NCBI GenBank assembly: GCA_013287965.1
Contig: JABDCU010000001.1
Coordinates: 5,910-69,909, forward strand
Direction: 5' to 3'
From: Candidatus Omnitrophota bacterium
GTDB lineage: Bacteria; Omnitrophota; Gorgyraeia; Zapsychrales; Fredricksoniimonadaceae
Length of the DNA stretch: 64,000 nucleotides
Position 1 is the stretch's first letter. Each line of letters starts with the position of its first letter. Positions 11,415 through 56,433 of this stretch are shown one piece after another. The translations under genes and the position numbers were made by a program. The notes under the pieces are model-generated. The model saw nothing but the letters and a program-made list of their open reading frames with translations, was not told where the DNA came from and made no database searches.

Positions 11415-13181
11415 TTACTGGTGGCGGCCGTTTGCTAAACGGCAGAGTTTTATGTCCCTGGCGGCTTCGGGGTTTAACGGGTCTATGCTCAAGACCTGCT
11501 GAAAATCTTTGAGGGCCTCCTGCGCGCGGCCTGCTTGCATCCACAACATCCCCCGCTCCATATACGCATCCTCAAATTGCGGCTCAAGCGCGATCGCGCG
11601 CCCCAGGTCATCCAGGGCTTCCTTATAATTATGCTGGGTTTGGTATACCCACGCCCTTTTCACATAGGTTGAAAAATAATTGGGGTCCATGGCGATCGAC
11701 TTATTTAGGTCTTCCAGGGCTTGGGCGGTCCGGCCTTGCTGGCCATAAATGATCCCGCGGTTCTCATAGGTAATATTATTAGGGCTGATGGCAATGGCAC
11801 GGCTTAAATAATAAATAGACGCGTCTAGCCGCCCTAAAGAGCCATACACCCTTCCCAAACTCGCGTTCACACGGGCCTTGCCCGGCGACTCCTTGATATT
11901 GTTTTCCCAAAGCGCTAACTCATTGGCCCAGACTTTATTGCGCTGAAAACTCATAAAGGCCAAAACAAAGACCAGGCAGTATAAAAAAAACCGGGACACA
12001 TTGACTTTTTGTATACCCAAAAAGTCAATGTGTCCCGGTTTTTTCCACACCAAAACGGACAAGGCAGACACGAAGGCCAAAATGAAGCCAAATGAGATGA
12101 GATACAATTTATGCTCAAAGATCACATTGAATCGGGGCACTAAATTGACAGAAAATGTGATCAGCATCCATGCCAAGCCAAACGCTATTAAAGGAAAGCT
12201 GCGGCGCAGCTTGATGATCAGGAAAATAAACCCCAAGATCACGCCTAATCCTGCCAAGGTCAACGGCGGATGGAGAAAACCGGTTGAGGCCGGATAATCG
12301 TAATCCACATTTTGATGGATGGGCAAGACCAAAAGGCGAAGGAAGGTCAAAAAAACCCTCATCTGGGTCAACACATAATGCGCCGTGGTAAAGACATCCC
12401 CATCGTGAGATTCAGAAGGGATTGTTTTTGAAAAATCAACCAACTGTAAATGCAGCATTTTTGAGAACAACAGGCACAATAAAAATCCGGCGGCGAGAAT
12501 TGTTAAATAATGTTTGTTATGGATTCCCGCCTTCGCGGGAATGACAGTGTTTAATAATATCCATTCGCAAGCCAGGACCATCACCGGCACAGTCATGATC
12601 ACTTCCTTGGTTAAAACCCCTAAAATGGTTGCGAGCCCTGCCAGCCCAAATAATGCCATTTGGTGTGTCTTGACCGTTGACAGGCGCGCGCGCAGATAAA
12701 AATATATTGTCCCGAAATAAAACACAGCGGCCATGGATTCAAAACGCTGGGTGATATAGGTCACGGCCTGGGTTTGGCATGGATGGACCAAAAAAAGGAG
12801 AGCGATTATGAAAGGAAGATCTTTGTGGATTCCCGCTTGCGCAGGAATGACAGTGCGCGCAGTGATCTTAAAAAGCAAGTCTGCCAGGGCCCACACTAAT
12901 CCCGTTGCGATAAGATGCACGATAAAATTAAAAATGTGATATCCCCGGGCATCAAGCTGGTTGAAATAATAATTTAACGCGAAGGAATACATGCCCACCA
13001 GACGGGTCAAGGGAAAGGTATGCCACATCATATGGAAATTGCTGAAATTCTTGATAAAAGGATTGGCAACGATGAAGAGATTGTCGTCAAAAACAAAACC
13101 GAATCGGAAGGTCTGGCCGTAGACCAAAAGTCCCAGCAGGATGAGGGCCAAGCAGCGTAAGAATATTTTATTGATGCGCAT
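11415..13181 (-). CDS. Polytopic membrane protein (TMTC / PMT_2-like N-terminal domain with FVFDD motif) with C-terminal TPR repeats. It carries three in-frame palindromic element insertions.
   Basis: About 10 predicted TM helices, then 4-5 TPR repeats (GRVYGSLGRLDASIYYLSRAIAISP...). The REP-1-derived peptides TVIPAQAGIHKD and TVIPAKAGIHNK and the REP-2-derived KKPGHIDFLGIQKVNVSRFF are visible in the translation. Confidence 0.7.
   Translation of the reverse strand: MRINKIFLRCLALILLGLLVYGQTFRFGFVFDDNLFIVANPFIKNFSNFHMMWHTFPLTRLVGMYSFALNYYFNQLDARGYHIFNFIVHLIATGLVWALADLLFKITARTVIPAQAGIHKDLPFIIALLFLVHPCQTQAVTYITQRFESMAAVFYFGTIYFYLRARLSTVKTHQMALFGLAGLATILGVLTKEVIMTVPVMVLACEWILLNTVIPAKAGIHNKHYLTILAAGFLLCLLFSKMLHLQLVDFSKTIPSESHDGDVFTTAHYVLTQMRVFLTFLRLLVLPIHQNVDYDYPASTGFLHPPLTLAGLGVILGFIFLIIKLRRSFPLIAFGLAWMLITFSVNLVPRFNVIFEHKLYLISFGFILAFVSALSVLVWKKPGHIDFLGIQKVNVSRFFLYCLVFVLAFMSFQRNKVWANELALWENNIKESPGKARVNASLGRVYGSLGRLDASIYYLSRAIAISPNNITYENRGIIYGQQGRTAQALEDLNKSIAMDPNYFSTYVKRAWVYQTQHNYKEALDDLGRAIALEPQFEDAYMERGMLWMQAGRAQEALKDFQQVLSIDPLNPEAARDIKLCRLANGRHQ
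11983..12046. repeat. REP-2 hairpin element copy A, located inside ORF 11415..13181 at the TM/TPR domain junction and read through in frame.
   Basis: aaaaaaaaccgggacacattgactttttgtatacccaaaaagtcaatgtgtcccggtttttt. Translated as KKPGHIDFLGIQKVNVSRFF. Confidence 0.8.
12519..12549. repeat. REP-1 palindromic element copy (tggattcccgcCttcgcgggaatgacag consensus).
   Basis: Seen directly. Other copies are at about 12826-12855, 14211-14240, 23529-23557, 52749-52778, 54790-54818 (degenerate) and 55596-55625. Confidence 0.85.
12826..12855. repeat. REP-1 element copy.
   Basis: tggattcccgcttgcgcaggaatgacagtg. Confidence 0.8.
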
Positions 13182-14238
13182 GTCTTAGCTGGCCACAGGC
13201 GGCGTTCACGTCTTTGCCTCTCGGCGTGCGGATAGTGGCATGGACACCGCTGTCTTCAAGGCTGTCTCTAAAGGCAGTCATTTCCTTGCCGGTAGGTGTT
13301 TGGTGCCCGAATTCTGAAACAGGATTATAGGGGATAAGGTTCATTTTGCAGATGATCCCTTTAAAAGCTTTTTTCAAACTCGCCACGGCGTGCGGCGTGC
13401 ACGTGACATCCTTAATGAGGATATACTCGAACGTTATCTGCCGGTTGGTTTTGCGGACGTAGTCACGGCAGGCCGCGATCAATTCATCAAACGGGTATTT
13501 TTTATTGACCGGCATGAGCACATCGCGGGAAGGATTATCATACCCGTGCAGGGAAATGGCCAATTCCACCTGCAAGCCCTCTTGGGCCAATTCCCTGATC
13601 TTCGGGACAACTCCGACGGTGGAGATCGTGATATGCCGCGCCCCTATATTAATGCCCTTGTCCGCATTGATGATGCGCACTGCTTTCATCAAATTAATAA
13701 AATTATCCAAAGGCTCCCCCGTTCCCATGAACACGATATTGGTCAACGGCCTCTTATGTTTCAAGGCCTCTTCCTTGACATGCAAAACCTGGGTGACGAT
13801 CTCAGCACAGCTAAGATTTCTCTTCCAGCCGCCGATACCGCTGGCGCAAAACTTGCAGCCGAACTTACAGCCGGCCTGGGTCGAAATACACGCGGTTGTC
13901 CTGGTTGCGGTGGGGATCAGGACACTCTCGATCTTCTCATGGTCATGAAGGTCAAAGAGAAATTTGGTGGTGCCGTCCTCGGAGACCAGCTTTTGGGCGA
14001 TCTCATTGGTTTTAAGGACAAGGTCTTTCTTCAAACGGTCCCTTAATCCTTTAGGGACATTGGTCATCGCGTCAAAACCCCAAGCACCTTTTTGATAGAT
14101 CCACTGGAAGACCTGGTCAGCGCGAAAAGGCTCTGCATCAACAGAGCGCAAGTACGCCGTCAATTCTTCCAAAGACAAATCACGTATATCTGGATGAGGG
14201 GTCACGTTTATGGATTCCCGCTTTCGCGGGAATGACAA
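13168..14238 (-). CDS. rlmN: 23S rRNA (adenine2503-C2)-methyltransferase RlmN (radical SAM). The annotated TTG start lies inside a REP-1 element, so the true start is probably downstream.
   Basis: CKFGCKFCASG radical-SAM CxxxCxxC motif. The RlmN/Cfr family has conserved GTGEP, ISLHG and a C-terminal Cys. The N-terminus MSFPRKRESI is a REP translation. Confidence 0.85.
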   Translation of the reverse strand: MSFPRKRESINVTPHPDIRDLSLEELTAYLRSVDAEPFRADQVFQWIYQKGAWGFDAMTNVPKGLRDRLKKDLVLKTNEIAQKLVSEDGTTKFLFDLHDHEKIESVLIPTATRTTACISTQAGCKFGCKFCASGIGGWKRNLSCAEIVTQVLHVKEEALKHKRPLTNIVFMGTGEPLDNFINLMKAVRIINADKGINIGARHITISTVGVVPKIRELAQEGLQVELAISLHGYDNPSRDVLMPVNKKYPFDELIAACRDYVRKTNRQITFEYILIKDVTCTPHAVASLKKAFKGIICKMNLIPYNPVSEFGHQTPTGKEMTAFRDSLEDSGVHATIRTPRGKDVNAACGQLRHAHQ

Positions 14239-14240
14239 TG
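14211..14240. repeat. REP-1 element copy at the 5' end of rlmN.
   Basis: tggattcccgctttcgcgggaatgacaatg. Confidence 0.85.
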
Positions 14241-14241
14241 T

Positions 14242-15192
14242 TTACTTCTCAACAAACTCCCCGATGTCACGGTATTTTTTGTAGCGGGCGTCTAAAAGCT
14301 CTTTGGGACTTAACGTGGACGCTTTCTTAAAATATTTAATGAGCGCTGCCTTCAAAAGAAGCGCTGATTCCTGCGGCTCCCGGTGGGCGCCGCCCAAAGG
14401 TTCAGGGATGATCTCGTCCACAATATTGAATTTGATCAGGTCTTCCCCGTGCAGCTTCAGGGCTTCCGCGGCTTGCGGGGCTTTTAAAGAAGAGCGCCAA
14501 AGGATGGACGCGCAACCCTCGGGGGAAATGACAGAATAATAGGCGTGCTGTAAAATAAAAACACGGTCAGCCACTCCTATCCCCAGGGCCCCGCCGCTGC
14601 CGCCCTCGCCGATGATCACCGCGGCAATAGGTGTCCTGATGCCGGCCATATCACGCAAATTTTCCGCGATGGCCTGGGCCTGGCCGCGTTCTTCCGCCCC
14701 GATGCCCGGATAGGCGCCCGGCGTGTCGATCAGGCAAATGACCGGCACATGGAATTTTTCCGCCAGGCGCATCAGGCGCATAGCCTTGCGGTAGCCTTCC
14801 GGATGGGCGCAGCCGAAATTGCGCAACACATTTTCTTTGACATCACGGCCCTTCTGGTGGCCGATGACCATCACCTTCTGCCCGTCGATCTTGGCAAAGC
14901 CGCCGATCATGGCCTTGTCATCGGCAAAAAGCCGGTCCCCGTGCAATTCCAGGAATTCATCGGTCATCATGCGGATATAATCAAACGTATAGGGGCGTTT
15001 GGGATGGCGGGCGATCTGGATGCGCTGCCAGGATGTCATCTTGTTATAGACATCGTTTTTGAGTTTCTCGAGCTTGGATTCCAGGCGCTTGATCTCCGGC
15101 TCAAGGGTCACCCGCTTGGAGCCCATTTGGCGCAGGTCATTGATCTTATGTTCAAGCTCGAGGATCGGCTTTTCAAAATCCAGGATGGCCAT
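14242..15192 (-). CDS. accA: Acetyl-CoA carboxylase carboxyltransferase subunit alpha.
   Basis: Strong similarity to AccA along its length (ARHPKRPYTFDYI, DTPGAYPGIGAEERGQ, IGEGGSGGALGIG, SVISPEGCASILW). Confidence 0.92.
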   Translation of the reverse strand: MAILDFEKPILELEHKINDLRQMGSKRVTLEPEIKRLESKLEKLKNDVYNKMTSWQRIQIARHPKRPYTFDYIRMMTDEFLELHGDRLFADDKAMIGGFAKIDGQKVMVIGHQKGRDVKENVLRNFGCAHPEGYRKAMRLMRLAEKFHVPVICLIDTPGAYPGIGAEERGQAQAIAENLRDMAGIRTPIAAVIIGEGGSGGALGIGVADRVFILQHAYYSVISPEGCASILWRSSLKAPQAAEALKLHGEDLIKFNIVDEIIPEPLGGAHREPQESALLLKAALIKYFKKASTLSPKELLDARYKKYRDIGEFVEK

Positions 15193-15194
15193 AG

Positions 15195-16019
15195 TTAGTT
15201 TTGGATGACCACTTTGGTCCCGACGGGAATGATGTCAAAAAGCTCTTCAACATCTGCGTTTTTCAGGCGGACACAGCCGTCTGTCACCTGTTGCCCGATG
15301 CTTTCAGGGTGAAGGGTGCCGTGGATGCCGTAATGCGGGTCTGTATCAAAGCCCATCCACCGGCTGCCCAATTCATTTGCCGGGCTTTCAGAGGGGATAG
15401 GGGCGCCTCCGTTTTTAAACCATACCGGTTTTTCTATCTTGGTGGCGATCTTGAAGGCCCCGACGGGTGTGATATTGTCCCTTCCCGTTGACACATGATA
15501 GATCTTAAGCACCTCTTCGCCGGACTTAAGGAAGAGCACATTTTGTGATTTGTTGATCAGGACATTGAACGGCACCGTCCATATGCGCAGGCGCTCGCCG
15601 GTACGTATCACATCGCTCTTGAGATTGTTGGCTATTTTGATCAGCTGGGGCGTCGTGTTATATTTCCGGGCCAATTTCCCCAGAGAATCTCCGGGGACGA
15701 TCTCGTAAAGGACCGTTTGGGGCATTTGGGCCGGAGAAAAAATAAGGTCAATGTTCAAATTCCCAAGCTTGTCCTGCACCTCTTCGATCTTGTCATAATC
15801 CGGATAATTGCTGATGATCTGATCGTACGCTTCCTTGGCTTTAAGCTTGTCCCCCTCGGCCTCGTATTTGGCCGCTTCAGCCAAAAGCTGGTTAACAGGG
15901 ACGTTTGTTTCGTCAGAGACCCTGGAGGCAACAGCGGCCTTGTGGTGCTGATGCACGACGATACCACCCGCGACCAATACAATGGCCGCTATAATACCGA
16001 TCAAAACTTTCTGGTCCAT
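15195..16019 (-). CDS. LysM domain plus L,D-transpeptidase (YkuD) catalytic domain protein.
   Basis: N-terminal TM anchor. LysM segment YEIVPGDSLGKLARKYNTTPQLIKIANNL. The LDT catalytic motif is HGT...TDGCVRL. Confidence 0.85.
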   Translation of the reverse strand: MDQKVLIGIIAAIVLVAGGIVVHQHHKAAVASRVSDETNVPVNQLLAEAAKYEAEGDKLKAKEAYDQIISNYPDYDKIEEVQDKLGNLNIDLIFSPAQMPQTVLYEIVPGDSLGKLARKYNTTPQLIKIANNLKSDVIRTGERLRIWTVPFNVLINKSQNVLFLKSGEEVLKIYHVSTGRDNITPVGAFKIATKIEKPVWFKNGGAPIPSESPANELGSRWMGFDTDPHYGIHGTLHPESIGQQVTDGCVRLKNADVEELFDIIPVGTKVVIQN

Positions 16020-16028
16020 AACTCTCCT

Positions 16029-16490
16029 TTAATATAAGATCATGGCACAAACTACGCCAAAAGCAAACCCCGCCAGCACTTCGATGGGCGTATGCCCCAC
16101 TAATTCTTTAAGCCTCTGCTCCTGGACCTGGCCTTTCAAGTAAATATCATCCATCATTTTATTAAGGATGGTGGCCTGGTAACCGGTGGCACGGCGCACC
16201 CCTTGGGCATCAAACATCGTCACGATGGCAAAGCTGGCAGCCACGGCAAAAAGGGGTGAGTTAAAACCATATTCCAGTCCCACTGATGTTGCCAAAGCCG
16301 ATACTCCGGCCGCGTGGCTGGAAGGCATGCCGCCGGTACCGATAAGCCAGCGGAAATTAAACTTTTTTTCCTTTAAGACCCCCACAAGGACCTTGATCAG
16401 TTGGGCCAAGACCCAAACAACCAGGGTGATCAAAAGGATCCGGTTTTGAAAGATCTCCGGGAAAAACGAATGTGGATATAGGCCTAGCAT
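16029..16490 (-). CDS. Divergent PAP2 / DUF212 (YuiD-like) membrane protein.
   Basis: GGMPSSHAA and FDAQGVRR motifs of the DUF212 acid-phosphatase-related family. Four TM segments. Confidence 0.75.
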   Translation of the reverse strand: MLGLYPHSFFPEIFQNRILLITLVVWVLAQLIKVLVGVLKEKKFNFRWLIGTGGMPSSHAAGVSALATSVGLEYGFNSPLFAVAASFAIVTMFDAQGVRRATGYQATILNKMMDDIYLKGQVQEQRLKELVGHTPIEVLAGFAFGVVCAMILY

Positions 16491-16649
16491 GAAATATTGA
16501 CGGAAAATCCTCTTTGTGTTAGGCTACATTATAAGCTTGCTCCCCAAAAAAGCAAGTGAAGGTTTAGAACAGCAATTGCGTATCTTGCTTGACCCCCTCA
16601 AGCAAATGTAGTTTGGCCCTTAACTCCCCCTATCGTACTGGATCCTCCT

Positions 16650-20759: not shown

Positions 20760-20915
20760 TAGAGTTGTAAGTTATTATATTTCAAATAGTTAAAAAATAC
20801 TGATTAACGCGAAACTGTCGTCTTCCAGAATTAAGATGTTGTCTGGAAAGTATAACATTTCTTAGACAGCGTTGTCAAGGTGAGGAGGTTCCCCTAGGCC
20901 AAATCTTTGGGGGTA

Positions 20916-21482: not shown

Positions 21483-21567
21483 AACTCCCCCTTATTTTAA
21501 AACTCAGCCAAGTCCTTCCAATTAAAATAAATCTAATTTCGTCAACAGTCAACAGATGTTTGGAAAA

Positions 21568-22749: not shown

Positions 22750-22822
22750 TAAAACTACCTTCTATGTTATTTCTAGAGATGTGCCGTTTCCCAAAAATCA
22801 TATTAGAAAAACGGCGTTCATA

Positions 22823-23575
22823 TTAAAACTCGTACTCGATGACCCATTTCAATTCTCCCCGGGGGGCCGCGTCGGACATGCCGAATAAATAACCGATATC
22901 ATATTTAACATGCCTGTTCAGGCGGCCGTAAAAAACAGGTCCGGCCTGATGGCTTTGCTGATTATAGTCTAACTGATGGGCAACCGCACTAAAATCGTTG
23001 TAATACTCAACACCCGGCTCAAAATAAGGGGAAAGGCGGTATTTAGTGCTCCAGGACATTCCGCCGTCAATATGCGGGTTGGCGCCGCTGCCGCCAATTT
23101 CTTTATTGAAACTAATGTTAAGGATATTGGTGATCTTATCTATGGATTTTTCCAGCAAGATCTTCCCTTCAAATTTCCCCGCCTGTTTATCGATAAGGGG
23201 TGCCTCATAGGCAAGATAAAGTCCCGGGTCCAGCCAATATTCCCCTTTGGGGGCAAGTTGAAAAATATTCTCCCATTCCGTATGGGTTGCTTGGAGCTTT
23301 GTGACGGAACCATCTGTAGGCAATGTTTCCATTTCTACTTCTAATTCCGTTGCCCAATGACTGGTGACCCCATAACCGATCGCATTTTTATACTCTTGTA
23401 CTGCATTTTTATTCTTGGCACGGTCAAGATCATACAGCCCTGTTGTTTCATATTCCCATTCCCCTTGTGTCACATATGGCTCGAACACCCGCTTCTCGGC
23501 GAAGGCAGGATTGCACAAACTAACTATTATTGTCATTCCCGCGACAGCGGGAATCCATAAATATTTATTGAGCAA
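22823..23575 (-). CDS. Putative outer-membrane beta-barrel-like secreted protein. The N-terminus is partly encoded by a REP-1 element.
   Basis: Signal-like N-terminus. Alternating amphipathic strands. The C-terminal ...WVIEYEF has the aromatic terminal residue typical of OMPs. WIPAVAGMT is a REP translation. Confidence 0.5.
   Translation of the reverse strand: MLNKYLWIPAVAGMTIIVSLCNPAFAEKRVFEPYVTQGEWEYETTGLYDLDRAKNKNAVQEYKNAIGYGVTSHWATELEVEMETLPTDGSVTKLQATHTEWENIFQLAPKGEYWLDPGLYLAYEAPLIDKQAGKFEGKILLEKSIDKITNILNISFNKEIGGSGANPHIDGGMSWSTKYRLSPYFEPGVEYYNDFSAVAHQLDYNQQSHQAGPVFYGRLNRHVKYDIGYLFGMSDAAPRGELKWVIEYEF
23529..23557. repeat. REP-1 element copy within the N-terminal coding region of ORF 22823..23575.
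   Basis: ttgtcattcccgcgacagcgggaatccat. Confidence 0.85.
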
Positions 23576-24038: not shown

Positions 24039-24094
24039 AAAAACCGGGACACATTGACTTTTCCAGCAAAAAAGTCAATGTGTCCCGGTTTTTA
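24039..24094. repeat. REP-2 hairpin element copy B. Intergenic and terminator-like.
   Basis: aaaaaccgggacacattgacttttccagcaaaaaagtcaatgtgtcccggttttt. Confidence 0.8.
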
Positions 24095-24472: not shown

Positions 24473-24481
24473 AAACGCCTC

Positions 24482-35517: not shown

Positions 35518-35519
35518 AT

Positions 35520-39538: not shown

Positions 39539-39607
39539 CAAAAAACCGGGACACATTGAATTAAATTAAATTTTACATGAAACTTTAATTCAATGTGTCC
39601 CGGTTTT
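39539..39607. repeat. REP-2 hairpin element copy C (aaaaaaccgggacacattgaatt...aattcaatgtgtcccggttttt). Terminator-like, lying between rpe and the pilin-like gene.
   Basis: Perfect inverted repeat with roughly 20-bp arms flanked by an A-run and a T-run. The same core aaccgggacacattgac is found at 11983-12046 and 24039-24094. Confidence 0.8.
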
Positions 39608-40300
39608 TCTAAGACCCTTGGTGACATTGGAAATATCATCAGCGCCAAAAAGATAGCTGGCAGTAATGAGAACGTGCGCGCCTGCCTTCACCGCCAATGG
39701 GGCGGTTTGGGCATTGATCCCCCCGTCTACGGCGATATCACCTTTAAAAATTTCCTTTAGGCGTACCAGCTTAGGCAAGGCTTCGGCCATGAATTTTTGG
39801 CCGGCAAACCCCGGGTTAACAGACATGACCAAGACCCCGTCGCAATCATTCAAAATGGCCTCGCATAACGGCGTGCCGGGATTGATGACCACGAATGCTT
39901 TTTTCCCAAACCCGCGGACCTTTTTTAAGTCCGCGCGAAGGCCAGGGATGTCCACTTCATCGATCTCTTTAGGCCATTGGTCCCACTGGCGGCATGCAGC
40001 CCGACGCTGTCCATAGCACTCCACCTGGATTTGGATAATGTCTGCCCCGGCTTTCGCGTAGCTTTCAATATAATCCCCGGGATGCTCGATCATCAAGTGG
40101 GCTTCCAGGGGAAGTTTGGTGTGCTTACGCATGGCCTCAACGATCACAGGCCCAATGGTCAAATTAGGGACAAAATGCCCGTCCATGCAATCAATGTGAA
40201 AACGCGCCACCCCGCTGTCTTCACAACGCTTGATATCGCGGGCCAAATTGCCGAAATCAGCGGCGAGGATGCTGGCTGAAACTTCGATGGGTTTTTTCAT
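39590..40300 (-). CDS. rpe: Ribulose-phosphate 3-epimerase. True start at MKKPIEV. The track ORF is extended 13 codons into the tRNA-Leu gene.
   Basis: SILAADFGNL, HIDCMDGHFVPN, and MSVNPGFAGQKF motifs of Rpe. Confidence 0.9.
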   Translation of the reverse strand: MKKPIEVSASILAADFGNLARDIKRCEDSGVARFHIDCMDGHFVPNLTIGPVIVEAMRKHTKLPLEAHLMIEHPGDYIESYAKAGADIIQIQVECYGQRRAACRQWDQWPKEIDEVDIPGLRADLKKVRGFGKKAFVVINPGTPLCEAILNDCDGVLVMSVNPGFAGQKFMAEALPKLVRLKEIFKGDIAVDGGINAQTAPLAVKAGAHVLITASYLFGADDISNVTKGLRKTGTH

Positions 40301-43377: not shown

Positions 43378-43379
43378 GA

Positions 43380-47718: not shown

Positions 47719-47811
47719 GCCCTGCTTTTTTATTGAAAATATCGCGGAAATACGTCGGCGGGAAGGATAATCCCCATGCCTGAAACACTATAAAGCAAGT
47801 ACCCTTCATTG

Positions 47812-48183: not shown

Positions 48184-48223
48184 AGATAAATTGAGTATAC
48201 AACCATTCCGATGGTACTGGCAA

Positions 48224-51200
48224 CTATAAACCAAGAAAATTCTTCAAATCCGTCATGGGTTGGATACTGATGATCACCGGTACAAAGCCCGGGGCGTTTT
48301 GCAACTGCGCCAGCATGGCTGGATCAAGGTGAAATTCTATTTCACCTCCATTATTTTGAGTCTGTAAATTCATATTGGAAGGAGTTAGGTCGATACCGCC
48401 TTCACGAGTCTTATATTCAACCTTCCTTTGAATATTCTTTGTCACCATAGCATCATCTGTAATAGGTTTTCCCTCTACAACAATGCCTTGTTGTTTAAAA
48501 ATTTCCGCTACCAATGCATTACGAAAAAAGTTGGTAAATTCTCGCGTATAATCGCCTGCTTCTGACAATCTATGTCCCATTTCTTCCATATAAGACCTGC
48601 CGAAAGATTCTGGGTCTGCCAGTTGACTTCTTTTCATCCCAATCTTCTTTGTTGCTGTATTCCAATAAGCCTGGTACCCTTCCAGCGCATCACCTGTCAA
48701 TTTACTTTTAACAGAAGTGAAAACTTCCATAGGACTAGGTTCTATTTTTTTCCCTAATATTTCTTCCAATTTTTTATCAATAATCTGGCGAAGTTGTAGG
48801 ATTTTAATCTCCGCAGGGGTCAAATCATCTATATTCATATATTGAAAATCTGGTTCCAATACTTCAGAATCAAGGTGAACCCCTAAGCTATGGATTACTA
48901 ACGCGATATTATAGTTCATAAACACCACTTGATAACCCATATTTCTTAAGAGTAACTGTGTATCGGGATCATGGATGGTACGTTGTGTGCCTAAAACAAC
49001 CTTCTTGGGATCCCATCCTTTTTGACTTACAACACTTTCCCATGCATTCTGCCAAGTCTGACGGTTTTTGTATGAAGGAATTCTTGTTACATCTTGATAC
49101 TCCGGTCGAGATCCGTTAACTTTTAAAGCCGCATTAATAACCGCAGTTACAGCCTCAACAGAATCTGTTTGTGCCAACATCAATCCAATTGCTTCAGTGA
49201 CTTTGCCTGCATGAAGAACATTCCGGTCGGGAGAAACAATGATTCCAGGTATATTAATAAAATTATAACTCAATATATTATGATGTGAACGTGCAGTATC
49301 TTGAACCTCTAAACCTTGGACATAAAGCCTATCACTAGTCGTTGAAACTATTTCTCCGCCTTCTGTCGTACTTAATGGATGATAATTGGGATTTAGAATA
49401 AGTGCTTTTTCTGCTAAGCGTCTAACAGATTTTAAAAAATCTGAAGTAGGTTGAGTGAAAATGGTCTCCGAACCTTCTATAAGTTGTTTACGTAAATGTA
49501 CCATATCATAACTCAAAACTTGCACTTGGACTGATTTGCCATCAGCATCATTATAAAATTGTGTTTCGATTTTAGCTTTAGCTTTCCAATTTCTTGATCT
49601 TAATTCAAGCCCTAATCCCGCTCTTAAACAAGCTGCGGACAACATTTTGAGACCTTCTCCCCATCCGCCCGCAGCTTCAGGGGTTTCATTTTTTGTACTG
49701 AATAAAAGTCCTAAAAGTTTATAATCATACCCTGTTCCATTGTCTCGGATACGAACGGATGCAATCCGGTCATCGTGGAATTGAGAAATCTCATTAATAT
49801 CCAGCCATCGGGATTCCTCTTCACCTTTTAATGAAAATTCCACGTTAATCTTCGTGGAGCCTGCGTCTTTAGGCAAATGGTTTTGGACTGCATCCAATAA
49901 AATTCGATCAATCCCCCAAGCGGTTTCACGATAATTAAGAGTCAATCCGGTACTTACATTTTGATTTTCTTTCTCATAATAAATTGATGTTGTTGTTGCC
50001 ACGCCTGCTTTTACTAAAAGAATTCCTACAAGGCCAGATATGAGTACGACCTTTTTCCCTTCTTTAATTGCTTGTTCAGTAAGCGCATCCGGTTTTCCAC
50101 TATAACCCGTTGTCTCCCCCAATATTGCGTCTTCACCATATAAACCTTGAAATGCTTGACGCCATACATTAGCCGCCCGTTCATCCAACTTCCTGTAATA
50201 ATCAAAATATAGACCGTTTTCATAGAACTCCTCCGAAACCTTAAACTTACCGTCCTCCTCTTTCATTATAGATTTCTGTATAAAATGTTTTGCAATTTCA
50301 GGTGTTATATTCTCAAACATTGCTAACTTTACCACTGCCTCTATCGCTGAACGAGGCAGGTTATCACGATCACGATTAAGATCTGAATCATTAAAAAGAT
50401 TATAGTTAAAAAGAGCAGGCCTGTAAGCGATATTGCCGTCCGGAAGACTTATAACGTAATTTCCTTTAACATAAATTTCACTCTTTTCTCCTGAGCGTTT
50501 CCCTACAACTTCTCCCACATTTCCAGTGACCAGTGTTGGTCTATATTCCTGATTTAAAAACAACACCAAGTCTGGCAACCTTTTTGCTTGATTCAAAAAT
50601 TCAGAACTAGGGGAACGGATGATCGTCCTTGAACCTGACATTCCTTGTGTATCACTTACTTGTAATGCAATGTTATATGTGGCGATCTCATTTTGAAAAC
50701 CCTTATTAAGGATTTTTTCTGCTATGATTGGTTTAGCCTGCCAAGAGCGGGATTGAAATTCAACTTGAATACCCCGCTTCATTGCAGCCGCGGTCGCAAT
50801 TTTAAGACCTTCTCCAAATTTTCCTGACTCCTCAGTTGAGCCTTTGGTCGTAAGAAAATATTTCAAATGTTCTACATCATAACCGATACCATCATCCGCT
50901 ATCTCAATCGAATCAACATCCTCTGGTCGAAGAGATTGGACTTCTGGATCCAACAGCCCAATAGTTCTTCCGTTTTTTAAATGAAAGGTTACTTCGGTCT
51001 TGCTTCCTTTTGCATCCGCGGGTTTATGATTTTGGACAAAATCAATTAAAATACGGCGTTCATCCCATTTTTCCAAACCACCGTAATCAAGAGTCATGTC
51101 CGTATCAATTATTTTGACTCCTTGTGCTTTGGGGACGCTTTCAATTCTTTCAGGTTCAATTACCACTTCCTGCTTTACTGAATCATCTACCACCTCTTTG

Positions 51201-53017
51201 TTTTTATTATCTTTTTTACGCCAATTAAAAAGACCCGTACCAATATCCGTCTGATTACCTGTCTGATTTACGTCCGCTGGATTAATAAGAACGCCATCTT
51301 TTAATTCCCGCACAGCCGCATTATGGGCTTCAATCCAGCCCCATGTTGGATTCTGTTTACGATAAAAAACTTCCCGTTGTTCATGTTTCAGAAGCCGTAC
51401 ATTATTTAATTCTTCTTCCAGCCCCACTATAAGCCACTGCCCATTCCAGGGGCCTTCCTGGGATGATTGAAAATTTACTGACTTAGCCCCAAAACCTTCT
51501 TGGGGATTCATTACCCATTTATAAATGGCTTTACCTATACGGTCTTCTTGGGCATGCTGGCTAATTTTCAAAATCACATTCCCATCTTGATCGACATCCT
51601 CATCTACCAAACCTTTCTGCCTTAACTGCTCTACTAAAAATTCAATAATTTCGCTGTTCGAACCTGTGGCGGATAAATGGGCAAAACGCGCAATTAGCCG
51701 TAAAATTCTGTTCAAACGTTGTGCGTTTCTATCATGCGCCATGGACGTTGAAGGTAAATTTTGATCGGCATTATCGATCTTTGTTGTTTCACCTATGCCA
51801 GGATCAACAAAAGTACCCACTACATAGGTTCCATTAGTATCATTTATATTAGGCATGACTCCTGCTGAAGTAACCAGCGGTGTAATGTTTAATTTTTCTA
51901 GTGCTACCCCGCCTGAAAAATACTTTCTGGGAATGGTCTCTTGGGATAATGTGTCCGTATCTTCCTTAATATAATTGAACACGCCCTTCTTAAAAGCCTG
52001 TAAATACCGCCCATAAATTCTTTCTTTTTCTTTTGGATCATCAATATTGACCCCCACAACCTTGTTCTTATTCTCATAAACTTGCTCCAAGATACTGTCC
52101 TTGATCTTTTTCTTGTACCAGGTGGCTAAGATGAGGGAATTGTAAACTTGGCGCAATTTGGCAAAATTCTTGCCTTCGTTGACTTCCTTGGTGAGCTCTG
52201 GGATGACGATTTCTCTAACGATTTGAGAGCCTAAAGTACTCACGTCATTCTGAGGCGTAGCCGAAGAATCTAAAGGTGTCTTAAGATGCGCTGCGCTTCT
52301 TCGCTCGCTCAGGATGACAGAATGCTTTTCTAATGATAAATAATCCTGCTCAAGCATTACCTTTAGCTTTGCTTCCACTACATACGCGGTGCCGGCTTTG
52401 GCGTTTTCGTAAACTACGGCTTTTTCCGGCACTATCCATACCTTGTTAAAAGTATTGACCGGAATATTGGTTGTGCCAAATCTTTTAGACGCCTCTTCAT
52501 AAATACGCTTCCAGAATTTCTTGCCAATCTCATCCTCAGGATAAATCAAACTCGCTGTTATTTGTTTGAGCATGTAGTCTTCGGCAAGCAGGTCTCGGCC
52601 CATTTCAGTAAGACCAAAACTTTGAGGAATGATCCTATCCTTCTCGTAAGGGCTCAGGTTGACCCAAAGGTCTTTTTCAGGGATGGTTAGGCTGGCTAGG
52701 AAGTATTTGATTAATTTCGTGGATTCTATTTTAAGTTGTTCTTGGTTCTGGATTCCCGCTTTCGCGGGAATGACAGGGTTAGAATCGCCTTGGTCTAATA
52801 TGAAATCAAAACGGAAAGGATTGTCAGGATGGACTTTGATCCCTTTCAGCATTGGAGGATTAAGCGGTGGGCTTAGATGGACCATGACCCCGGGCGCAGG
52901 CAATCGAAAATCTTGGGCTTGAACTAAAGGAACATTAAAACCAGTAACAGTAAAACATACCGTTACCAGTAAGCTGATCATCCTGCGCCAATTTAAAAAA
53001 TGAACAGGGGCTCCCAT
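48224..53017 (-). CDS. Giant (1597 aa) signal-peptide-bearing protein with two tandem GHKL (HATPase_c_3 / MORC-Hsp90-like) ATPase-like domains. Function unknown. It contains an in-frame REP-1 insertion (VIPAKAGIQ).
   Basis: Signal peptide MISLLVTVCFTVTGFNVPLVQAQ. Two copies of the N-box (DFVQNHKPADA, DAVQNHLPKDA), G1 (ADDGIGYD, RDNGTGYD) and G2 (GKFGEGLK, GGWGEGLK) are present. No HisKA H-box was recognised. Confidence 0.7.
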   Translation of the reverse strand: MGAPVHFLNWRRMISLLVTVCFTVTGFNVPLVQAQDFRLPAPGVMVHLSPPLNPPMLKGIKVHPDNPFRFDFILDQGDSNPVIPAKAGIQNQEQLKIESTKLIKYFLASLTIPEKDLWVNLSPYEKDRIIPQSFGLTEMGRDLLAEDYMLKQITASLIYPEDEIGKKFWKRIYEEASKRFGTTNIPVNTFNKVWIVPEKAVVYENAKAGTAYVVEAKLKVMLEQDYLSLEKHSVILSERRSAAHLKTPLDSSATPQNDVSTLGSQIVREIVIPELTKEVNEGKNFAKLRQVYNSLILATWYKKKIKDSILEQVYENKNKVVGVNIDDPKEKERIYGRYLQAFKKGVFNYIKEDTDTLSQETIPRKYFSGGVALEKLNITPLVTSAGVMPNINDTNGTYVVGTFVDPGIGETTKIDNADQNLPSTSMAHDRNAQRLNRILRLIARFAHLSATGSNSEIIEFLVEQLRQKGLVDEDVDQDGNVILKISQHAQEDRIGKAIYKWVMNPQEGFGAKSVNFQSSQEGPWNGQWLIVGLEEELNNVRLLKHEQREVFYRKQNPTWGWIEAHNAAVRELKDGVLINPADVNQTGNQTDIGTGLFNWRKKDNKNKEVVDDSVKQEVVIEPERIESVPKAQGVKIIDTDMTLDYGGLEKWDERRILIDFVQNHKPADAKGSKTEVTFHLKNGRTIGLLDPEVQSLRPEDVDSIEIADDGIGYDVEHLKYFLTTKGSTEESGKFGEGLKIATAAAMKRGIQVEFQSRSWQAKPIIAEKILNKGFQNEIATYNIALQVSDTQGMSGSRTIIRSPSSEFLNQAKRLPDLVLFLNQEYRPTLVTGNVGEVVGKRSGEKSEIYVKGNYVISLPDGNIAYRPALFNYNLFNDSDLNRDRDNLPRSAIEAVVKLAMFENITPEIAKHFIQKSIMKEEDGKFKVSEEFYENGLYFDYYRKLDERAANVWRQAFQGLYGEDAILGETTGYSGKPDALTEQAIKEGKKVVLISGLVGILLVKAGVATTTSIYYEKENQNVSTGLTLNYRETAWGIDRILLDAVQNHLPKDAGSTKINVEFSLKGEEESRWLDINEISQFHDDRIASVRIRDNGTGYDYKLLGLLFSTKNETPEAAGGWGEGLKMLSAACLRAGLGLELRSRNWKAKAKIETQFYNDADGKSVQVQVLSYDMVHLRKQLIEGSETIFTQPTSDFLKSVRRLAEKALILNPNYHPLSTTEGGEIVSTTSDRLYVQGLEVQDTARSHHNILSYNFINIPGIIVSPDRNVLHAGKVTEAIGLMLAQTDSVEAVTAVINAALKVNGSRPEYQDVTRIPSYKNRQTWQNAWESVVSQKGWDPKKVVLGTQRTIHDPDTQLLLRNMGYQVVFMNYNIALVIHSLGVHLDSEVLEPDFQYMNIDDLTPAEIKILQLRQIIDKKLEEILGKKIEPSPMEVFTSVKSKLTGDALEGYQAYWNTATKKIGMKRSQLADPESFGRSYMEEMGHRLSEAGDYTREFTNFFRNALVAEIFKQQGIVVEGKPITDDAMVTKNIQRKVEYKTREGGIDLTPSNMNLQTQNNGGEIEFHLDPAMLAQLQNAPGFVPVIISIQPMTDLKNFLGL
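52749..52778. repeat. REP-1 element copy inside the GHKL giant gene.
   Basis: tggattcccgctttcgcgggaatgacaggg. Confidence 0.85.
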
Positions 53018-53161
53018 GCTTAAAGTATTTAGTATAAAACTATATAATGCAAGGGCTTGGGAAGGATTTTGAGGAAACGGTTTCCTGTAAATATACCGAC
53101 GAGATAAAAAAATTCTATCTAAGATCAGAGGAAAATGATCTTTTAATTATTTCATAAAGGA

Positions 53162-53542
53162 TTAAATATGCGCTACAACTTCGATTTCCACCATGGAATC
53201 CTTGGGAATGCGGGCAACCTGGATGGTGGAGCGGGCCGGCGCTGTTTCGGCCTTAAAATGCTTGGCGTAGACCTCATTCATTCCCGCGAAATCATTGAGG
53301 TCTTTGAGGAAAACCGTGGCCTTGACCACCTTTTCCAAAGATGAACCGCCGTGGGTCAAGACCGCGATGAGATTTTGGATGACTTGCTCTGTCTGCTCCT
53401 TGATGCCGCCGGGAACCATATTGCCTTGGACATCCAGCGGGATCTGCCCGGCCGTATAAATTAAATTGCCGATGGACACGGCTTGATTATAGGGGCCAAC
53501 GGGTAAGGATGCTTTATCTGTTTTAATGATCTTCTTGCTCAT
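53162..53542 (-). CDS. ridA: RidA/YjgF family reactive-intermediate deaminase.
   Basis: Full-length match to the RidA family (APAPVGPYSQA-like PYNQAVSIG, C-terminal IEVVA). Confidence 0.88.
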   Translation of the reverse strand: MSKKIIKTDKASLPVGPYNQAVSIGNLIYTAGQIPLDVQGNMVPGGIKEQTEQVIQNLIAVLTHGGSSLEKVVKATVFLKDLNDFAGMNEVYAKHFKAETAPARSTIQVARIPKDSMVEIEVVAHI

Positions 53543-54770
53543 GGGAACTCCTATGTTTGATGATGGCCTGCGCTACGGTGTATCCGCTGGCCCAGGCCCA
53601 TTGAAAATTAAATCCGCCGATGCGGCCGTCCACATCCAGGATCTCTCCGGCAAAAAATAAACCGAGCGTTAATTTTGATTCTAACGTTTTAGGATTGATT
53701 TGGGTCCAATCAACACCGCCAGCAGTAACTTCTGCCTTACTATACCCGAGCACTCCTGTAACATCAAGCGGATATTGCACGCATCTGTCGATCAGGCGCT
53801 GACGGGAAGCTTTGTCCAACTGATTCATGGGCAAAGAAGCTTCAATGCCTGCTTTTTTGAAGATGATATCTGCCAAGCGTTGGGGCATTAGTTCGATCAA
53901 TACATTCCTGATTGTCTTGCGGGGATTTTGTGTCCCAAGCTGGCGCAGATGCTCACCCCAAGAATTCTCATTATAAGTCGGAATAAAATTAGCAATGACC
54001 TGTTTCTTGCCTTTGGCCTTAAGAAAATGCCGGCTGATATCCAGGGCCGCGGGACCTGAAAAACCAAGGTGCGTGAAAAGAAAACTGTCCCGGAAAGAAA
54101 TACACCGTTTGCCGTCGGCTACAAGCGTCAGCTGGACTTCAAGGGTGATGCCTGATAAAGATTTGAAATCATTGTCCTGAGTGGTCAAAGGTGTTAGCGC
54201 GGGAACGGTTTCGACCATTGAGTGCCCAAAAGATTGTGCCAGCCTATACCCTGTGCCGTCGCTGCCGGTAGTAGGATAGGACAATCCGCCGGTGGTGAGG
54301 ACCACATTTTTCCCATTAAAATGAAACTGGTCTCCTTGGAGAATGAACCCTTCTTTGTCCCTGCTGACAGCCTTGACTTTATGCTCGCATAAAAGCGTGA
54401 TGTTCTTGGCTTGATTGATTTTGCGTAAAAGTGCCTCGAGAACGGTTTTACCGGAATTGGTGGAAGGAAAATACTTGCCCGTGGGCTCCAGGACCAGCTC
54501 AACACCCAGGCCGCTGAAAAACCTGATCGTGTCTTCATTGCTGAAAGAACGCAAAATATTGCGCACATAAATGATCTCTTCGCTGTTAAAATCTTTTTCA
54601 CTGACAGCTTTGTTGGTGACATTGCAGCGGGTCCCACCGGACATCAGTATCTTGGCGCCGACTTTTTTCTGCCCTTCAAGCAAAAGCACCTGCAAACCGC
54701 CCTGGGCCGCCTGGATGGCTGTCATCAGGCCCGCTGCGCCGGCACCGACGATGATCACGTCATAAATCAT
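53523..54770 (-). CDS. HI0933 / BaiN family FAD-dependent flavoprotein.
   Basis: N-terminal FAD motif YDVIIVGAGAAGLM, and GGTRCNVTN characteristic of the HI0933 family. Confidence 0.88.
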   Translation of the reverse strand: MIYDVIIVGAGAAGLMTAIQAAQGGLQVLLLEGQKKVGAKILMSGGTRCNVTNKAVSEKDFNSEEIIYVRNILRSFSNEDTIRFFSGLGVELVLEPTGKYFPSTNSGKTVLEALLRKINQAKNITLLCEHKVKAVSRDKEGFILQGDQFHFNGKNVVLTTGGLSYPTTGSDGTGYRLAQSFGHSMVETVPALTPLTTQDNDFKSLSGITLEVQLTLVADGKRCISFRDSFLFTHLGFSGPAALDISRHFLKAKGKKQVIANFIPTYNENSWGEHLRQLGTQNPRKTIRNVLIELMPQRLADIIFKKAGIEASLPMNQLDKASRQRLIDRCVQYPLDVTGVLGYSKAEVTAGGVDWTQINPKTLESKLTLGLFFAGEILDVDGRIGGFNFQWAWASGYTVAQAIIKHRSSHEQEDH

Positions 54771-54772
54771 TT

Positions 54773-55504
54773 TTAAATCCTCATGTTCCGGATCCCCACC
54801 TTCGCGGGAATGACAGCGGAAGGATCAACTTCCCTAAATTGACCAGGGATAAGATCGCCCAATTTTAGTTTTCCAAAAGCAATGCGTTTAAGGGCCGTGA
54901 CCTCCGAGCCCAGCGCCTCGAACATGCGGCGGATCTCACGGTTTTTCCCCTCAGTAAGCTCTACGATCAGATGGGACTCTTTATTGCTGGCTTTTCGCAA
55001 AGTGATTGATGATGCTTTCAATATCTGCCCCTTGTCCTGGATGCCTTGTGATAAACGTTTTATCTCATCGTCGGTGATCTTGCCTGCGACACTGACCGCG
55101 TAGATGCGCGGTATTTCATTGTCCGGATCAGTCAAAAAATTCGAAAGCTGAGTGTCGGTAGTCATCAATAATAAACCGCAGCTCGCCATATCCAAGCGTC
55201 CCACCGGATGCAGGTGCTGTAAATGAGGCGGCAATAGGTCATAAATTGTTTTGCGCCCCTTCTCATCTGATCTGGTGGTGACAATGCCCCGAGGCTTATA
55301 CATCATGATCGTACAAGCAGCAGCGCGGGCCGCCGGCTTACCATCAATAGTGATACGGATTTTCTCCGGAACAACTAAAAACGCAGGGTCTTTGATGACA
55401 CGGCCATTGACTGCGATGCTGCCGGCCTCGATCAGCCGTTTAGTCTGCGCACGGGACATGATGCCTAGTTTTGACAATGCCCGCTCTAAAGGAACTTGAC
55501 CCAT
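54773..55504 (-). CDS. RsuA/RluB-family pseudouridine synthase (S4 domain plus catalytic domain). The C-terminus carries an in-frame REP-1 (VIPAKVGI).
   Basis: S4 domain at the N-terminus. Catalytic HPVGRLD motif. Confidence 0.88.
   Translation of the reverse strand: MGQVPLERALSKLGIMSRAQTKRLIEAGSIAVNGRVIKDPAFLVVPEKIRITIDGKPAARAAACTIMMYKPRGIVTTRSDEKGRKTIYDLLPPHLQHLHPVGRLDMASCGLLLMTTDTQLSNFLTDPDNEIPRIYAVSVAGKITDDEIKRLSQGIQDKGQILKASSITLRKASNKESHLIVELTEGKNREIRRMFEALGSEVTALKRIAFGKLKLGDLIPGQFREVDPSAVIPAKVGIRNMRI
54790..54818. repeat. REP-1 element, degenerate copy, at the 3' end of the pseudouridine synthase gene.
   Basis: ggatccccaccttcgcgggaatgacagcg. Confidence 0.7.
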
Positions 55505-56433
55505 AAGCCCGCCAGATAGCTTTCCTTAAAACTGTTGCTGCCCGTAAAATCCTTGTCCTGCCCCACCCGTTGAATATGCGCCACCCGTCGGCCGTTGATT
55601 CCCGCCTTCGCGGGAATGACAATGGAATGTAGCATGCGCTCCAGATCAGCGTGGCTGATCTCACTGTAATTCGTCGTTACCAGCAAATACCCTCCTGGAT
55701 TTAAGACCGCCACGGCCAACGCTATTAATTTAGGCAGATCGCGTTTGACCTGGAACACCTTGCCTTCATGACGGGCAAAAGAAGGCGGATCAAGGATGAT
55801 CACATCAAAATTATTTCCCTTTTTAAAAGCCCTCTGCAAAAATGAAACGGTATCTGCCTTGATGAATTCTCCCGCGGCACCAGGCAAAGCATTGAGCTGA
55901 TAATTATTCTTCCCGCGGTCCAGTATCTTGCGGCTGATATCTGTATTAATGACTTCGCTGGCACCCCCAGCGCGGGCATGTGCCCCGAAAGAACAGGTAT
56001 ATGAAAATCCGTTAAGGACTTTTTTTCCCTTGGAGAACTGTCCGACCATCCTGCGGTTGGCCCGCATGTCTAAAAACAAACCGCAGTTAAGCCCGTCATC
56101 CAAATTAACTTCAAACTTAATGCCGTATTCTTCAACGACCGTTCGGGGGTCAGCGCCTATCAATACCTCTGCCTTGACCTCTAGTCCCCTGCGGGCTTTG
56201 ACGATCAGATACTCCACCGGCATAGAGGAAGTCAATACATGGCAGATCTCATCCATTTGTTTATGCCAATGGTCAGCTAAAATCTGTACATGAAAATGTT
56301 TGTTATGCCGGTCGATCAGAAGCCCATCCAAGCCATCACCCTTGCCATTGACTAAGCGCATAGCATTGGTGATCAAATTTAATTGCTTTCGCCGTTGGAG
56401 GGCTTTCTCAAAGGTGCTTGCGAGCAATTTCAT
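55486..56433 (-). CDS. RlmI/RlmK-like class I SAM-dependent rRNA methyltransferase. The likely start is MKLLASTF. It carries an in-frame REP-1 insertion (IVIPAKAGINGRRV) near the C-terminus.
   Basis: Methyltransferase motifs VLNGFSYTCSFG and DVIILDPPSFA. A PUA-like N-terminal region. Confidence 0.8.
   Translation of the reverse strand: MKLLASTFEKALQRRKQLNLITNAMRLVNGKGDGLDGLLIDRHNKHFHVQILADHWHKQMDEICHVLTSSMPVEYLIVKARRGLEVKAEVLIGADPRTVVEEYGIKFEVNLDDGLNCGLFLDMRANRRMVGQFSKGKKVLNGFSYTCSFGAHARAGGASEVINTDISRKILDRGKNNYQLNALPGAAGEFIKADTVSFLQRAFKKGNNFDVIILDPPSFARHEGKVFQVKRDLPKLIALAVAVLNPGGYLLVTTNYSEISHADLERMLHSIVIPAKAGINGRRVAHIQRVGQDKDFTGSNSFKESYLAGLWVKFL
55596..55625. repeat. REP-1 element copy inside the RlmI-like gene.
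   Basis: ttgattcccgccttcgcgggaatgacaatg. Confidence 0.85.

Follow-up and report, generated by a model that had tools for sequence, protein, structure and literature searches.

Single copies of a CGTC-1/NTS-type hairpin repeat in the genes of an Omnitrophota bacterium

Introduction

A stretch of 64,000 nucleotides from a Candidatus Omnitrophota bacterium (contig JABDCU010000001.1 of assembly GCA_013287965.1, positions 5,910 to 69,909; hereafter the window) carries seven dispersed copies of a 27-nt hairpin element which, judged by their sequence, belong to the CGTC-1 REP family, that is, to the same family as the dRS3/NTS repeats of Neisseria, RPE-6 of Rickettsia conorii and the 'Ssn-related motif' (SRM). 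Earlier publications cover both the element family and its tolerance in frame; the host phylum is new. We consider it probable (roughly 0.8) that the copies are CGTC-1/dRS3/NTS/RPE-6 hairpins which would have spread as non-autonomous passengers of a Ssn-type nuclease system and which survive at sites that tolerate them.

Results

An oriented 27-nt hairpin in seven copies

The copies were located by scoring every position of the window against the 27-mer TGGATTCCCGC-NNNN-GCGGGAATGACA, with the loop ignored and up to 6 mismatches admitted outside it. The scan returned exactly seven copies of TGTCATTCCCGC-NNNN-GCGGGAATCCA, none being predicted by chance, at precisely the seven places where an earlier note on this stretch had reported a dispersed palindromic element of the REP type in at least seven copies. 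Beyond these it added only one 6-mismatch match at chance level (58498) and the opposite-strand reading of the palindromic copy 55595. The core TTCCCGC-N(3-8)-GCGGGAA occurs five times in the window versus 0.00 expected from 100 dinucleotide-preserving shuffles.

Alignment confirmed that the seven copies share a palindromic core, and the similarity drops sharply at the element borders. The bases GACA and the G of GGAT (on the opposite strand, the TGTC tag and the C directly after the stem) are invariant in all seven, the decayed copy included. Read from that strand the element is TGTC-ATTCCCGC-GAAR-GCGGGAAT-CCA, an oriented structure: the (C/T)GTC tag at the 5' end is followed by a stem of 8 bp (ATTCCCGC/GCGGGAAT) that encloses a G-N-A-R tetraloop, and CCA(G/T) forms the tail. 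The tag is TGTC throughout, the stem is perfect in five of the seven copies, and the tail reads CCA in five, CCG in one and TCA in one. A spacer of 4-6 nt, as proposed earlier, was not recovered: the loop measures 4 nt in 7/7 copies, and the literal 29-mer with a 6-nt spacer matches nothing. RNA folding predicts an 8-bp hairpin for every copy (-12.4 to -16.2 kcal/mol, z down to -6). No Rfam family covers the element, the only gathering-score matches in the window being two tRNAs.

With its 27 nt the element spans exactly nine codons, and a stop codon occurs in only one of its six reading frames (GFPLSRE*). The copies translate as VIPAKAGI(H/Q/N), VIPAQAGIH, WIPAVAGMT, SFPRKRES and VIPAKVGI, and every translation quoted in the earlier note is present among them. 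All seven copies are singletons. Six lie in the translated sequence of intact genes, four of them internally and in frame (two in a TM-TPR membrane protein, one in a giant protein and one in an RlmI-like methyltransferase); the claim that the copies sit mostly in frame within conserved genes holds for these six and fails for the remaining one, which lies outside any gene in the spacer from accA to rlmN. All six host genes are free of truncations and frameshifts, which answers the concern that they might be disrupted pseudogenes. The TGTC strand is the minus strand in six of the seven copies, and the minus strand is G-rich (GC skew on the plus strand is negative throughout). This suggests that in those six the strand with TGTC, presumably the cleavable one, acts as template for lagging-strand synthesis, an association that is confounded with gene orientation and drawn from a small number of copies.

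Relation to the CGTC-1, RPE-6 and NTS repeats

Di Nocera, De Gregorio & Rocco in 2013 (PMC3733652) defined CGTC-1 by four features: the tag CGTC, for which many copies have TGTC instead; a stem of 8 bp whose first bases are AT; a loop of 4 nt; and a tail reading CCA. They equated the family with Neisseria dRS3 and R. conorii RPE-6. The window element shares the TGTC variant of the tag, the stem from AT, the 4-nt loop and the CCA tail, and intragenic in-frame copies are documented for CGTC-1 as well. A full-text literature search for the peptides encoded by the element gave no match; they were found in the supplementary table of the 2013 paper, which gives VIPAKAGI, SFPRKRES, DSRFRGND, CHSRESGNP and WIPAFTGMT for the intragenic R. 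conorii copies (PMC3733652). Because these published peptides equal those of the window (VIPAKAGI, SFPRKRES, DSRFRGND and WIPAF(T/A)GMT, all inside housekeeping proteins), the comparison with Rickettsia RPEs, drawn in the earlier note as a parallel, amounts to homology rather than mere analogy. It does not extend to the classic RPE-1 elements, which are 100-150 bp long and unrelated in sequence, and the RPE-6 copies of Rickettsia, unlike ours, are often dimers encoding 20-30 aa. Similarly, the CGTC-1 copies of the 2013 survey came from 5 phyla, mostly from Alphaproteobacteria, and were mostly head-to-head dimers (PMC3733652), whereas those of the window are all singletons and lie in a phylum that the survey did not list; the dimer tendency concerns organisation and forms no part of the sequence definition.

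As of 2013, no enzyme had been tied to the CGTC repeats (PMC3733652). The 28-nt NTS, CGTCATTCCCGCGMAVGCGGGAATCYRG, within which dRS3 is contained, has since been described as the target of SsnA, a 94-aa GIY-YIG protein (family cd10448) that binds and cuts NTS as a single-stranded DNA (ssDNA) hairpin in one orientation only and is inactive on RNA and on double-stranded DNA (Nat Commun 2025, PMC11893778). Cleavage depends most on the three bases (GTC) upstream of the palindrome, and binding on the C directly after it; ssn genes of many bacteria are flanked by the motif in an arrangement like that of an insertion sequence (IS), and in meningococci the NTS/SsnA pair restricts transformation by NTS-bearing DNA (PMC11893778). 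The window element, TGTCATTCCCGCGAA(A/G)GCGGGAATCCA(G/T), is nearly identical to NTS. It is likewise an oriented, multi-copy hairpin, in which GTC of the tag and the C following the stem are conserved as they are in NTS. All seven copies match NTS within 3 mismatches and copy 52748-52775 within 1; the dRS3 core ATTCCC-N8-GGGAAT is exact in five, the remaining two having 1 and 3 changes; and three copies match the degenerate SRM pattern HGTCWYN(0-2)YYVSBRHN(0-5)WNVSBRGN(0-2)RNCYNB exactly, versus 0.29 expected in shuffles. The element, treated as a local 'REP-1' in the earlier note, therefore belongs to a family that already has a name and whose cognate nuclease is known.

The resemblance has its limits. 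The window copies start with T instead of C, and they are single, mostly intragenic and not clustered around genes; their host belongs to Omnitrophota, where a role in transformation is perhaps irrelevant, and no ssn gene lies within the 64 kb. Nor does the window show the RS-unit mosaics or arrays of the Neisseria dRS3/NIME repeats, a filamentous prophage or a Piv/IS110 recombinase. The GTAG REP/REPIN-RAYT and IS200/IS605 systems are comparable in that a small enzyme, IS-derived and present in single copy, recognises short hairpins as ssDNA while its own gene is flanked by them, and possibly also in a bias to the lagging-strand template. On the other hand, the window element carries TGTC and no GTAG tag, and the partner in its putative mobilisation would be a GIY-YIG nuclease, not a HUH/Y1 transposase.

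Copies in the TM-TPR protein

Two copies fall in the TM-TPR gene (11415..13181, minus strand), which encodes a multi-pass membrane protein with C-terminal TPR repeats that is full length by comparison with its orthologues. Both lie in length-variable inter-helix loops. The first (12519/12520-12546, minus strand, no mismatches, TGTCATTCCCGCGAAGGCGGGAATCCAT) reads NTVIPAKAGIH in frame; where relatives have EWILF-P(N/K/Q)K(N/D)-NK the window has EWILLNTVIPAKAGIHNKHY, a gain of about 8 aa. The second (12825/12826-12852, minus strand) has one mismatch, a stem change that still allows G-U pairing in RNA, and reads TVIPAQAGIH; here relatives have KITKV(F/L)PAKDR(V/L)TQELPF (PAKDRVTQELPF) and the window KITARTVIPAQAGIHKDLPF, with a net gain of only 2 aa. 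The closest relative (locus L124) carries a copy in the loop of 12825 and none in that of 12519.

We also considered a general targeting of microhomologies or 'proto-sites' (FPAKD, GGCGGGCTCA and ATTCCC, picked out by eye) and dropped it after a local-alignment test against a locus-wide null, in which only the second TM-TPR site (12825) was significant (score 10 vs mean 5.4, P about 0.01), and the first TM-TPR site, RlmI, RluB and the accA/rlmN junction were not. In three relatives in which the second site is empty (L143, L136 and L139, reading V(F/L)PAKDR), the DNA GTCCTTCCGGCCAAAG agrees with the left arm and loop of the element, GTCATTCCCGCGAAAG, at 13/16 positions; this could be an old decayed copy or a coincidence.

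The same gene is host to a second, unrelated family of palindromes, a perfect inverted repeat of ~60 bp (AAAAACCGGGACACATTGACTTTT...AAAAGTCAATGTGTCCCGGTTTTT) flanked by A/T runs and found at 11985-12044, 24039-24093 and 39541-39608. Its two copies within a scan of 11-25 kb were called terminator-like on both strands. One copy stands in frame inside the TM-TPR open reading frame (ORF) (WKKPGHIDFLGIQKVNVSRFF, +12 aa relative to relatives), which therefore contains three palindromic inserts. In addition, the short spacer between a DUF4143 ATPase gene and the TM-TPR gene holds two tandem 31-nt AT-rich repeats (11356-11417, AATAACATATTTATGTTATTTGTCAATATTA).

The accA/rlmN junction

In some 20 relatives the accA stop codon overlaps the ATG of rlmN (AAATGACC; context GAGAAAAAATGACC). 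In the window the junction reads GAGAAG-TAA-ACAT-[element]-TAAAC-GTG-ACC: accA stops at 14242, and a copy free of mismatches (14210/14211-14237, minus strand) lies within a new 36-nt spacer. The GTG at 14205 begins the series GTG ACC CCT CAT CCA GAT, which is orthologous to ATG ACC CTC CAG CCA GAT of the relatives and gives rlmN a corrected extent of 13168..14205 (minus strand); homology of RlmN to solved structures starts at residue 17-18 of the longer ORF. The copy is thus intergenic, and the peptide MSFPRKRES, which the earlier note had placed at the start of rlmN, is a spurious extension from a TTG that straddles the element border. Nor can the extension be ascribed to the ATG within the element, as had been suggested, because the spurious ORF starts at that TTG and the ATG of the element lies on the other strand there.

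The TAAAC on both sides of this copy was considered as a target-site duplication and rejected: TAAA also follows copy 23531, with no matching repeat on the left, and an extended tail is more likely than a duplication. The junction is a recurrent landing site. At the same junction of L124 (~4904-5000) a variant with a long loop, TGTCATTCCCGAATGCTTCTGTCGGGAATCCAG, precedes another palindrome, CCCCCGATTAAAACATTCGGGGG.

A copy in a predicted signal peptide

The only copy in the opposite orientation (23531-23557/23558, plus strand, no mismatches) lies near the 5' end of a gene for an OMP-like secreted protein (22823..23575, minus strand), whose TTG start at 23575 overlaps the stop codon of a cupredoxin gene lying upstream. 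In the direction of the gene the copy translates as WIPAVAGMT, and comparison with orthologues indicates that it encodes the hydrophobic core (h-region) of the predicted signal peptide, in agreement with the earlier placement of a copy in the signal region of this protein. The window sequence is MLNKYLWIPAVAGMTIIVSLCNPAFA|EK, and the orthologues have ordinary signal peptides (MLNKYIPIIIAFIGIFVWARPAFA|E in P0139, LLNKYL... in P0138). The database protein (P0121, 237 aa) starts at an ATG inside the element, which leaves a 13-aa pre-sequence lacking a charged N-region. This start is probably a mis-annotation, as the orthologues favour the TTG at 23575 and the window codons TTG CTC AAT AAA TAT are homologous to ATG CTC AAT AAA TAT of L210. 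Hence the element's ATG does not extend ORF 22823..23575, as had been thought; rather, the database annotation is truncated, and the orthologues start upstream.

Copies in the pseudouridine synthase and the RlmI-like methyltransferase

The most divergent copy (54788/54789-54815, minus strand, 3 mismatches, left arm decayed) forms a new C-terminal tail of a pseudouridine synthase of the RluB/RsuA type (54773..55504, minus strand). Homology to the catalytic domain of the synthase ends at residue 227; the relatives continue with the tail EV-KSKEIL* (232 aa) and the window protein with EV-DPSAVIPAKVGIRNMRI* (243 aa), directly after which comes the ATG of the next gene.

The adjacent RlmI-like rRNA methyltransferase, which is S-adenosylmethionine-dependent (55486..56433, minus strand; 315 aa, identical to database protein P0001), contains a copy with one mismatch (55594/55595-55621, minus strand). 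Nearly all relatives are 308 aa long; their DLERML-AGGLN-GRRV corresponds to DLERML-HSIVIPAKAGIN-GRRV in the window, a net change of +21 nt in frame. In the AlphaFold model (mean pLDDT 84.6) IPAKAGI occupies residues 273-279 in a loop (273-283) between a helix (261-272) and a strand (284-290), with pLDDT below 50 at 275-279. The copy is thus predicted to fall in a low-confidence surface loop.

A copy in the giant protein

The remaining copy (52748/52749-52775, minus strand, no mismatches) reads PVIPAKAGIQ in a giant protein of 1597 aa (48224..53017, minus strand) with weak matches to GHKL ATPases and an N-terminal module that is common in Omnitrophota. Short-form homologues have GD-SQL-SNDQLK where the window has GD-SNP-VIPAKAGIQ-NQEQLK, a clean gain of 9 aa in a hypervariable linker.

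Homologues of window region 51818-53017 (P0212, P0215, P0224, P0237 and P0255; L206-L209) carry different families of TGTC-tagged hairpins at the same codon after FDFILDxGD. Three families occur there: CGTC-1, TGTCATTGCAAGGAGCGAAGCGACGAAGCAATCT (read as VIARSEATKQS) and TGTCATCCCCGAATGG (read as SSPNGLIGDL). CAA GAA CAA CTN AAA follows the hairpin in each of the three filled homologues for which DNA was read, and in P0255 a further insertion is nested in the hairpin loop. The sharing of one codon hints at hairpin-targeted replacement, albeit a permissive linker explains it equally well. Elsewhere in the giant protein, at 52268-52330, a further hairpin family is represented by a decayed element with a TGTC tag (TGTCATCCTGAGCGAGCGAAG, translated as SVILSERRSAAHLKT); at the equivalent position the homologue P0212 carries a CGTC-1 copy.

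Relatives and recent expansion

For comparison we used 80 metagenome loci with RlmN 61-91% identical to that of the window, in which the order accA-rlmN-TPR is kept. These hold 4 copies of the element in 527 kb, versus 7 in the 64 kb of the window (Poisson P about 8e-7). Because the density is far higher than in relatives with this level of RlmN identity, the element has recently expanded in the window lineage. Close relatives nearly always lack copies at the orthologous sites, an exception being the TM-TPR loop of L124. Comparison with orthologues thus bore out the idea of insertion as far as empty sites are concerned, and less so in the lengths: net changes are about +6, +24, +21 and ~0 nt, and a clean +27 is seen only for the giant-protein copy. 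An assembly artefact was ruled out, as Logan and NCBI/JGI assemblies, which are independent of each other, contain the same proteins and L124 has its copy in the same loop. The named homologues of the host proteins come from Candidatus Omnitrophica/Omnitrophota.

Distribution elsewhere and GIY-YIG partner genes

A search of one genome per species with the query GGATTCCCGCNNNNGCGGGAATGACA found the exact 22 specified bases in at least 120 genome stretches from well over ten phyla. Among the matches listed are Pseudomonadota, Bacteroidota, Planctomycetota, Chloroflexota, Nitrospirota, Desulfobacterota, Acidobacteriota, Spirochaetota, Elusimicrobiota, Verrucomicrobiota and Cyanobacteria-related groups, as well as many Patescibacteria, Omnitrophota (including Ca. 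Omnitrophus magneticus), a Rickettsia endosymbiont and the cultured genera Massilia, Cupriavidus, Limnohabitans and Polaromonas; the consensus of 206 instances in these matches is Y-TGTCATTCCCGC-GNAR-GCGGGAATCCA-(G/T). In this broad sample 25 of 193 instances lie 50 or more codons deep in a long open frame, versus 3 of 7 in the window. The 27-mer is therefore mostly extragenic in other genomes, and the window lineage has an unusually high share of intragenic copies, which a gene-dense genome would lead one to expect.

A GIY-YIG query searched against all ORFs of the fetched loci revealed small GIY-YIG ORFs adjoining the element or a close variant in five of them (L083, L011, L054, L087 and L045), and Pfam PF01541 confirmed the four ORFs that were scanned (E 1e-13 to 1e-17). 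In L083 (ORF 2639-2932) the gene stands between two exact copies, TGTCATTCCCGCGAAGGCGGGAATCCA on the upstream side and the inverse of it on the downstream side; this 27-mer is identical to that of window copy 12520. In L011 (ORF 6147-6476) the downstream copy is exact and the upstream one decayed, with the read-through CHSRVGGNL. The genes of L054 and L087 have variant or decayed copies alongside, and that of the Omnitrophota locus L045 (7260-7550, minus strand) has only long-loop and partial variants beside it. Two close relatives of the window organism, L128 and L129, carry a ssn-like ORF (630-959, minus strand) flanked by a different TGTC-tagged hairpin, with no CGTC-1 copies, an arrangement that fits the published picture of cognate nuclease-motif pairs. 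Against NCBIfam and PDB the Ssn-like ORFs gave only weak matches to GIY-YIG intron endonucleases and spurious ones to WD40.

Other repeats of the window

Apart from the hairpins, the window contains a 2679-aa ORF (1318-9357) made of ~30 repeats with the DNA core TGCCGATGCCCACGTTGCCGT, encoding a peptide of the GNVGIGT type. Its 3' 254 nt (1318-1571) are 88% identical to the 3' end (441-694) of ORF 441-1271, which has a signal-peptidase S26 domain, and its 5' 182 nt (9176-9357) are repeated just upstream (9371-9552) with 83% identity.

Discussion

The way in which the seven copies may have come to their places can be pictured as follows. An element exposed as ssDNA would fold into a hairpin that a small nuclease of the GIY-YIG type, Ssn, would bind and cut in a single orientation, as it does in Neisseria and Wolbachia; the ssn gene typically lies between inverted copies and forms an IS-like unit with them. 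The window lineage would carry, or would once have carried, such a nuclease, and solo hairpins, mobilised by Ssn or by another agent, would have multiplied as non-autonomous passengers of the nuclease system. Purifying selection would then leave copies, which may be neutral for the host proteins, only at tolerant places. In the window these are a hypervariable linker, loops between helices or at the protein surface, a C-terminal tail, a signal-peptide core and the junction of two genes. Most landings would be in genes because the genome is ~95% coding (the fraction observed in the window), and many would keep the frame open because 27 nt make nine codons with a stop in one of six frames.

Several observations sit less comfortably with this picture. 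Neither phmmer nor a Pfam survey found a GIY-YIG/ssn gene in the 64-kb window, and no RAYT or other transposase domain was seen among its surveyed ORFs. To our knowledge, transposition by Ssn has never been demonstrated, and no strand-joining activity is known for GIY-YIG nucleases, which cut DNA. Most of the sites are not clean 27-nt insertions, and therefore their history includes extra indels or some process of replacement. The VIPAKAGI frame is used in five of the six coding copies (P about 0.01), which purely neutral landing does not predict. Finally, all copies of the window stand alone, while CGTC elements elsewhere are mostly head-to-head dimers.

The shared frame is what would be expected if protein-level selection had led unrelated proteins to acquire the motif IPAKAGI convergently. 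The intergenic copy and the one on the opposite strand effectively refute this explanation. What is conserved is the nucleotide sequence, extending to synonymous positions and to the untranslated copy 14210-14237; in the signal peptide that sequence is translated in a different frame and orientation (WIPAVAGMT); and the 27-mer is mostly extragenic elsewhere. It is very unlikely, too, that the hairpins act mainly at the RNA level and are retained as mRNA stabilisers, RNase barriers, attenuators or terminators like the REPs of E. coli, even though every copy would form a stable 8-bp RNA hairpin (-12 to -16 kcal/mol), the G-N-A-R loops are partly GNRA-like, and one copy stands exactly between two co-transcribed genes (accA/rlmN). 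In six of the seven copies the hairpin would be unwound by translating ribosomes, and close relatives manage without copies at every site. Moreover, the asymmetric tag and tail are conserved, i.e. the positions that the ssDNA nuclease needs, and SsnA does not act on RNA (PMC11893778). As to terminators, none of the copies at 12.5, 12.8, 14.2 and 23.5 kb was called in the 11-25 kb scan, and a T-run is lacking in the flanks of all seven.

Domestication of the copies beyond a merely selfish existence, either as targets of recombination or integration (as dRS3 is for an IS110/Piv-type recombinase) or as marks limiting the uptake of foreign ssDNA, has precedents for both roles in the Neisseria literature, namely filamentous-phage integration and the uptake limit in N. 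meningitidis. Preferred break and repair sites would also fit the three families of TGTC-tagged hairpins at one codon and the nested loop insertion. We nevertheless hold it to be unlikely, since the Pfam survey of the window showed no prophage, IS110 or competence genes beside the copies, which are scattered singly in housekeeping genes and do not bracket variable genes as in Neisseria; we also know of no natural transformation in Omnitrophota. A related and likewise unlikely reading is that TGTC-tagged hairpins of the Ssn type in Omnitrophota mark sites of recurrent hairpin-targeted break and repair, which would swap hairpin families and remodel protein loops. It is prompted by the three families at one codon, the nested loop insertion and the resemblance of several 'insertions' to replacements of native codons. 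Overall, the spread of CGTC-1 hairpins as passengers of a Ssn-type system, with survival at tolerant sites, remains the explanation we favour.

Given that the element family and its tolerance in frame had been published, the finding leaves the field unchanged. It does correct the annotation, in that the 5' extension of rlmN is spurious and the database start of the OMP-like protein probably wrong, and it adds a noteworthy example of a signal-peptide core predicted to be encoded by a repeat. It also shows that the exact NTS-type 27-mer reaches Omnitrophota, bacteria of the candidate phyla radiation, Chloroflexota, Planctomycetota and others, a range much wider than the 5 phyla of 2013. If recurrent break and repair were true, the lineage would offer empty, filled and swapped sites for asking how orphan CGTC/SRM repeats move, a question that dates from 2013. 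In any case, the recent expansion together with the unoccupied sites in relatives provides material for studying hairpin insertion and its tolerance by proteins.

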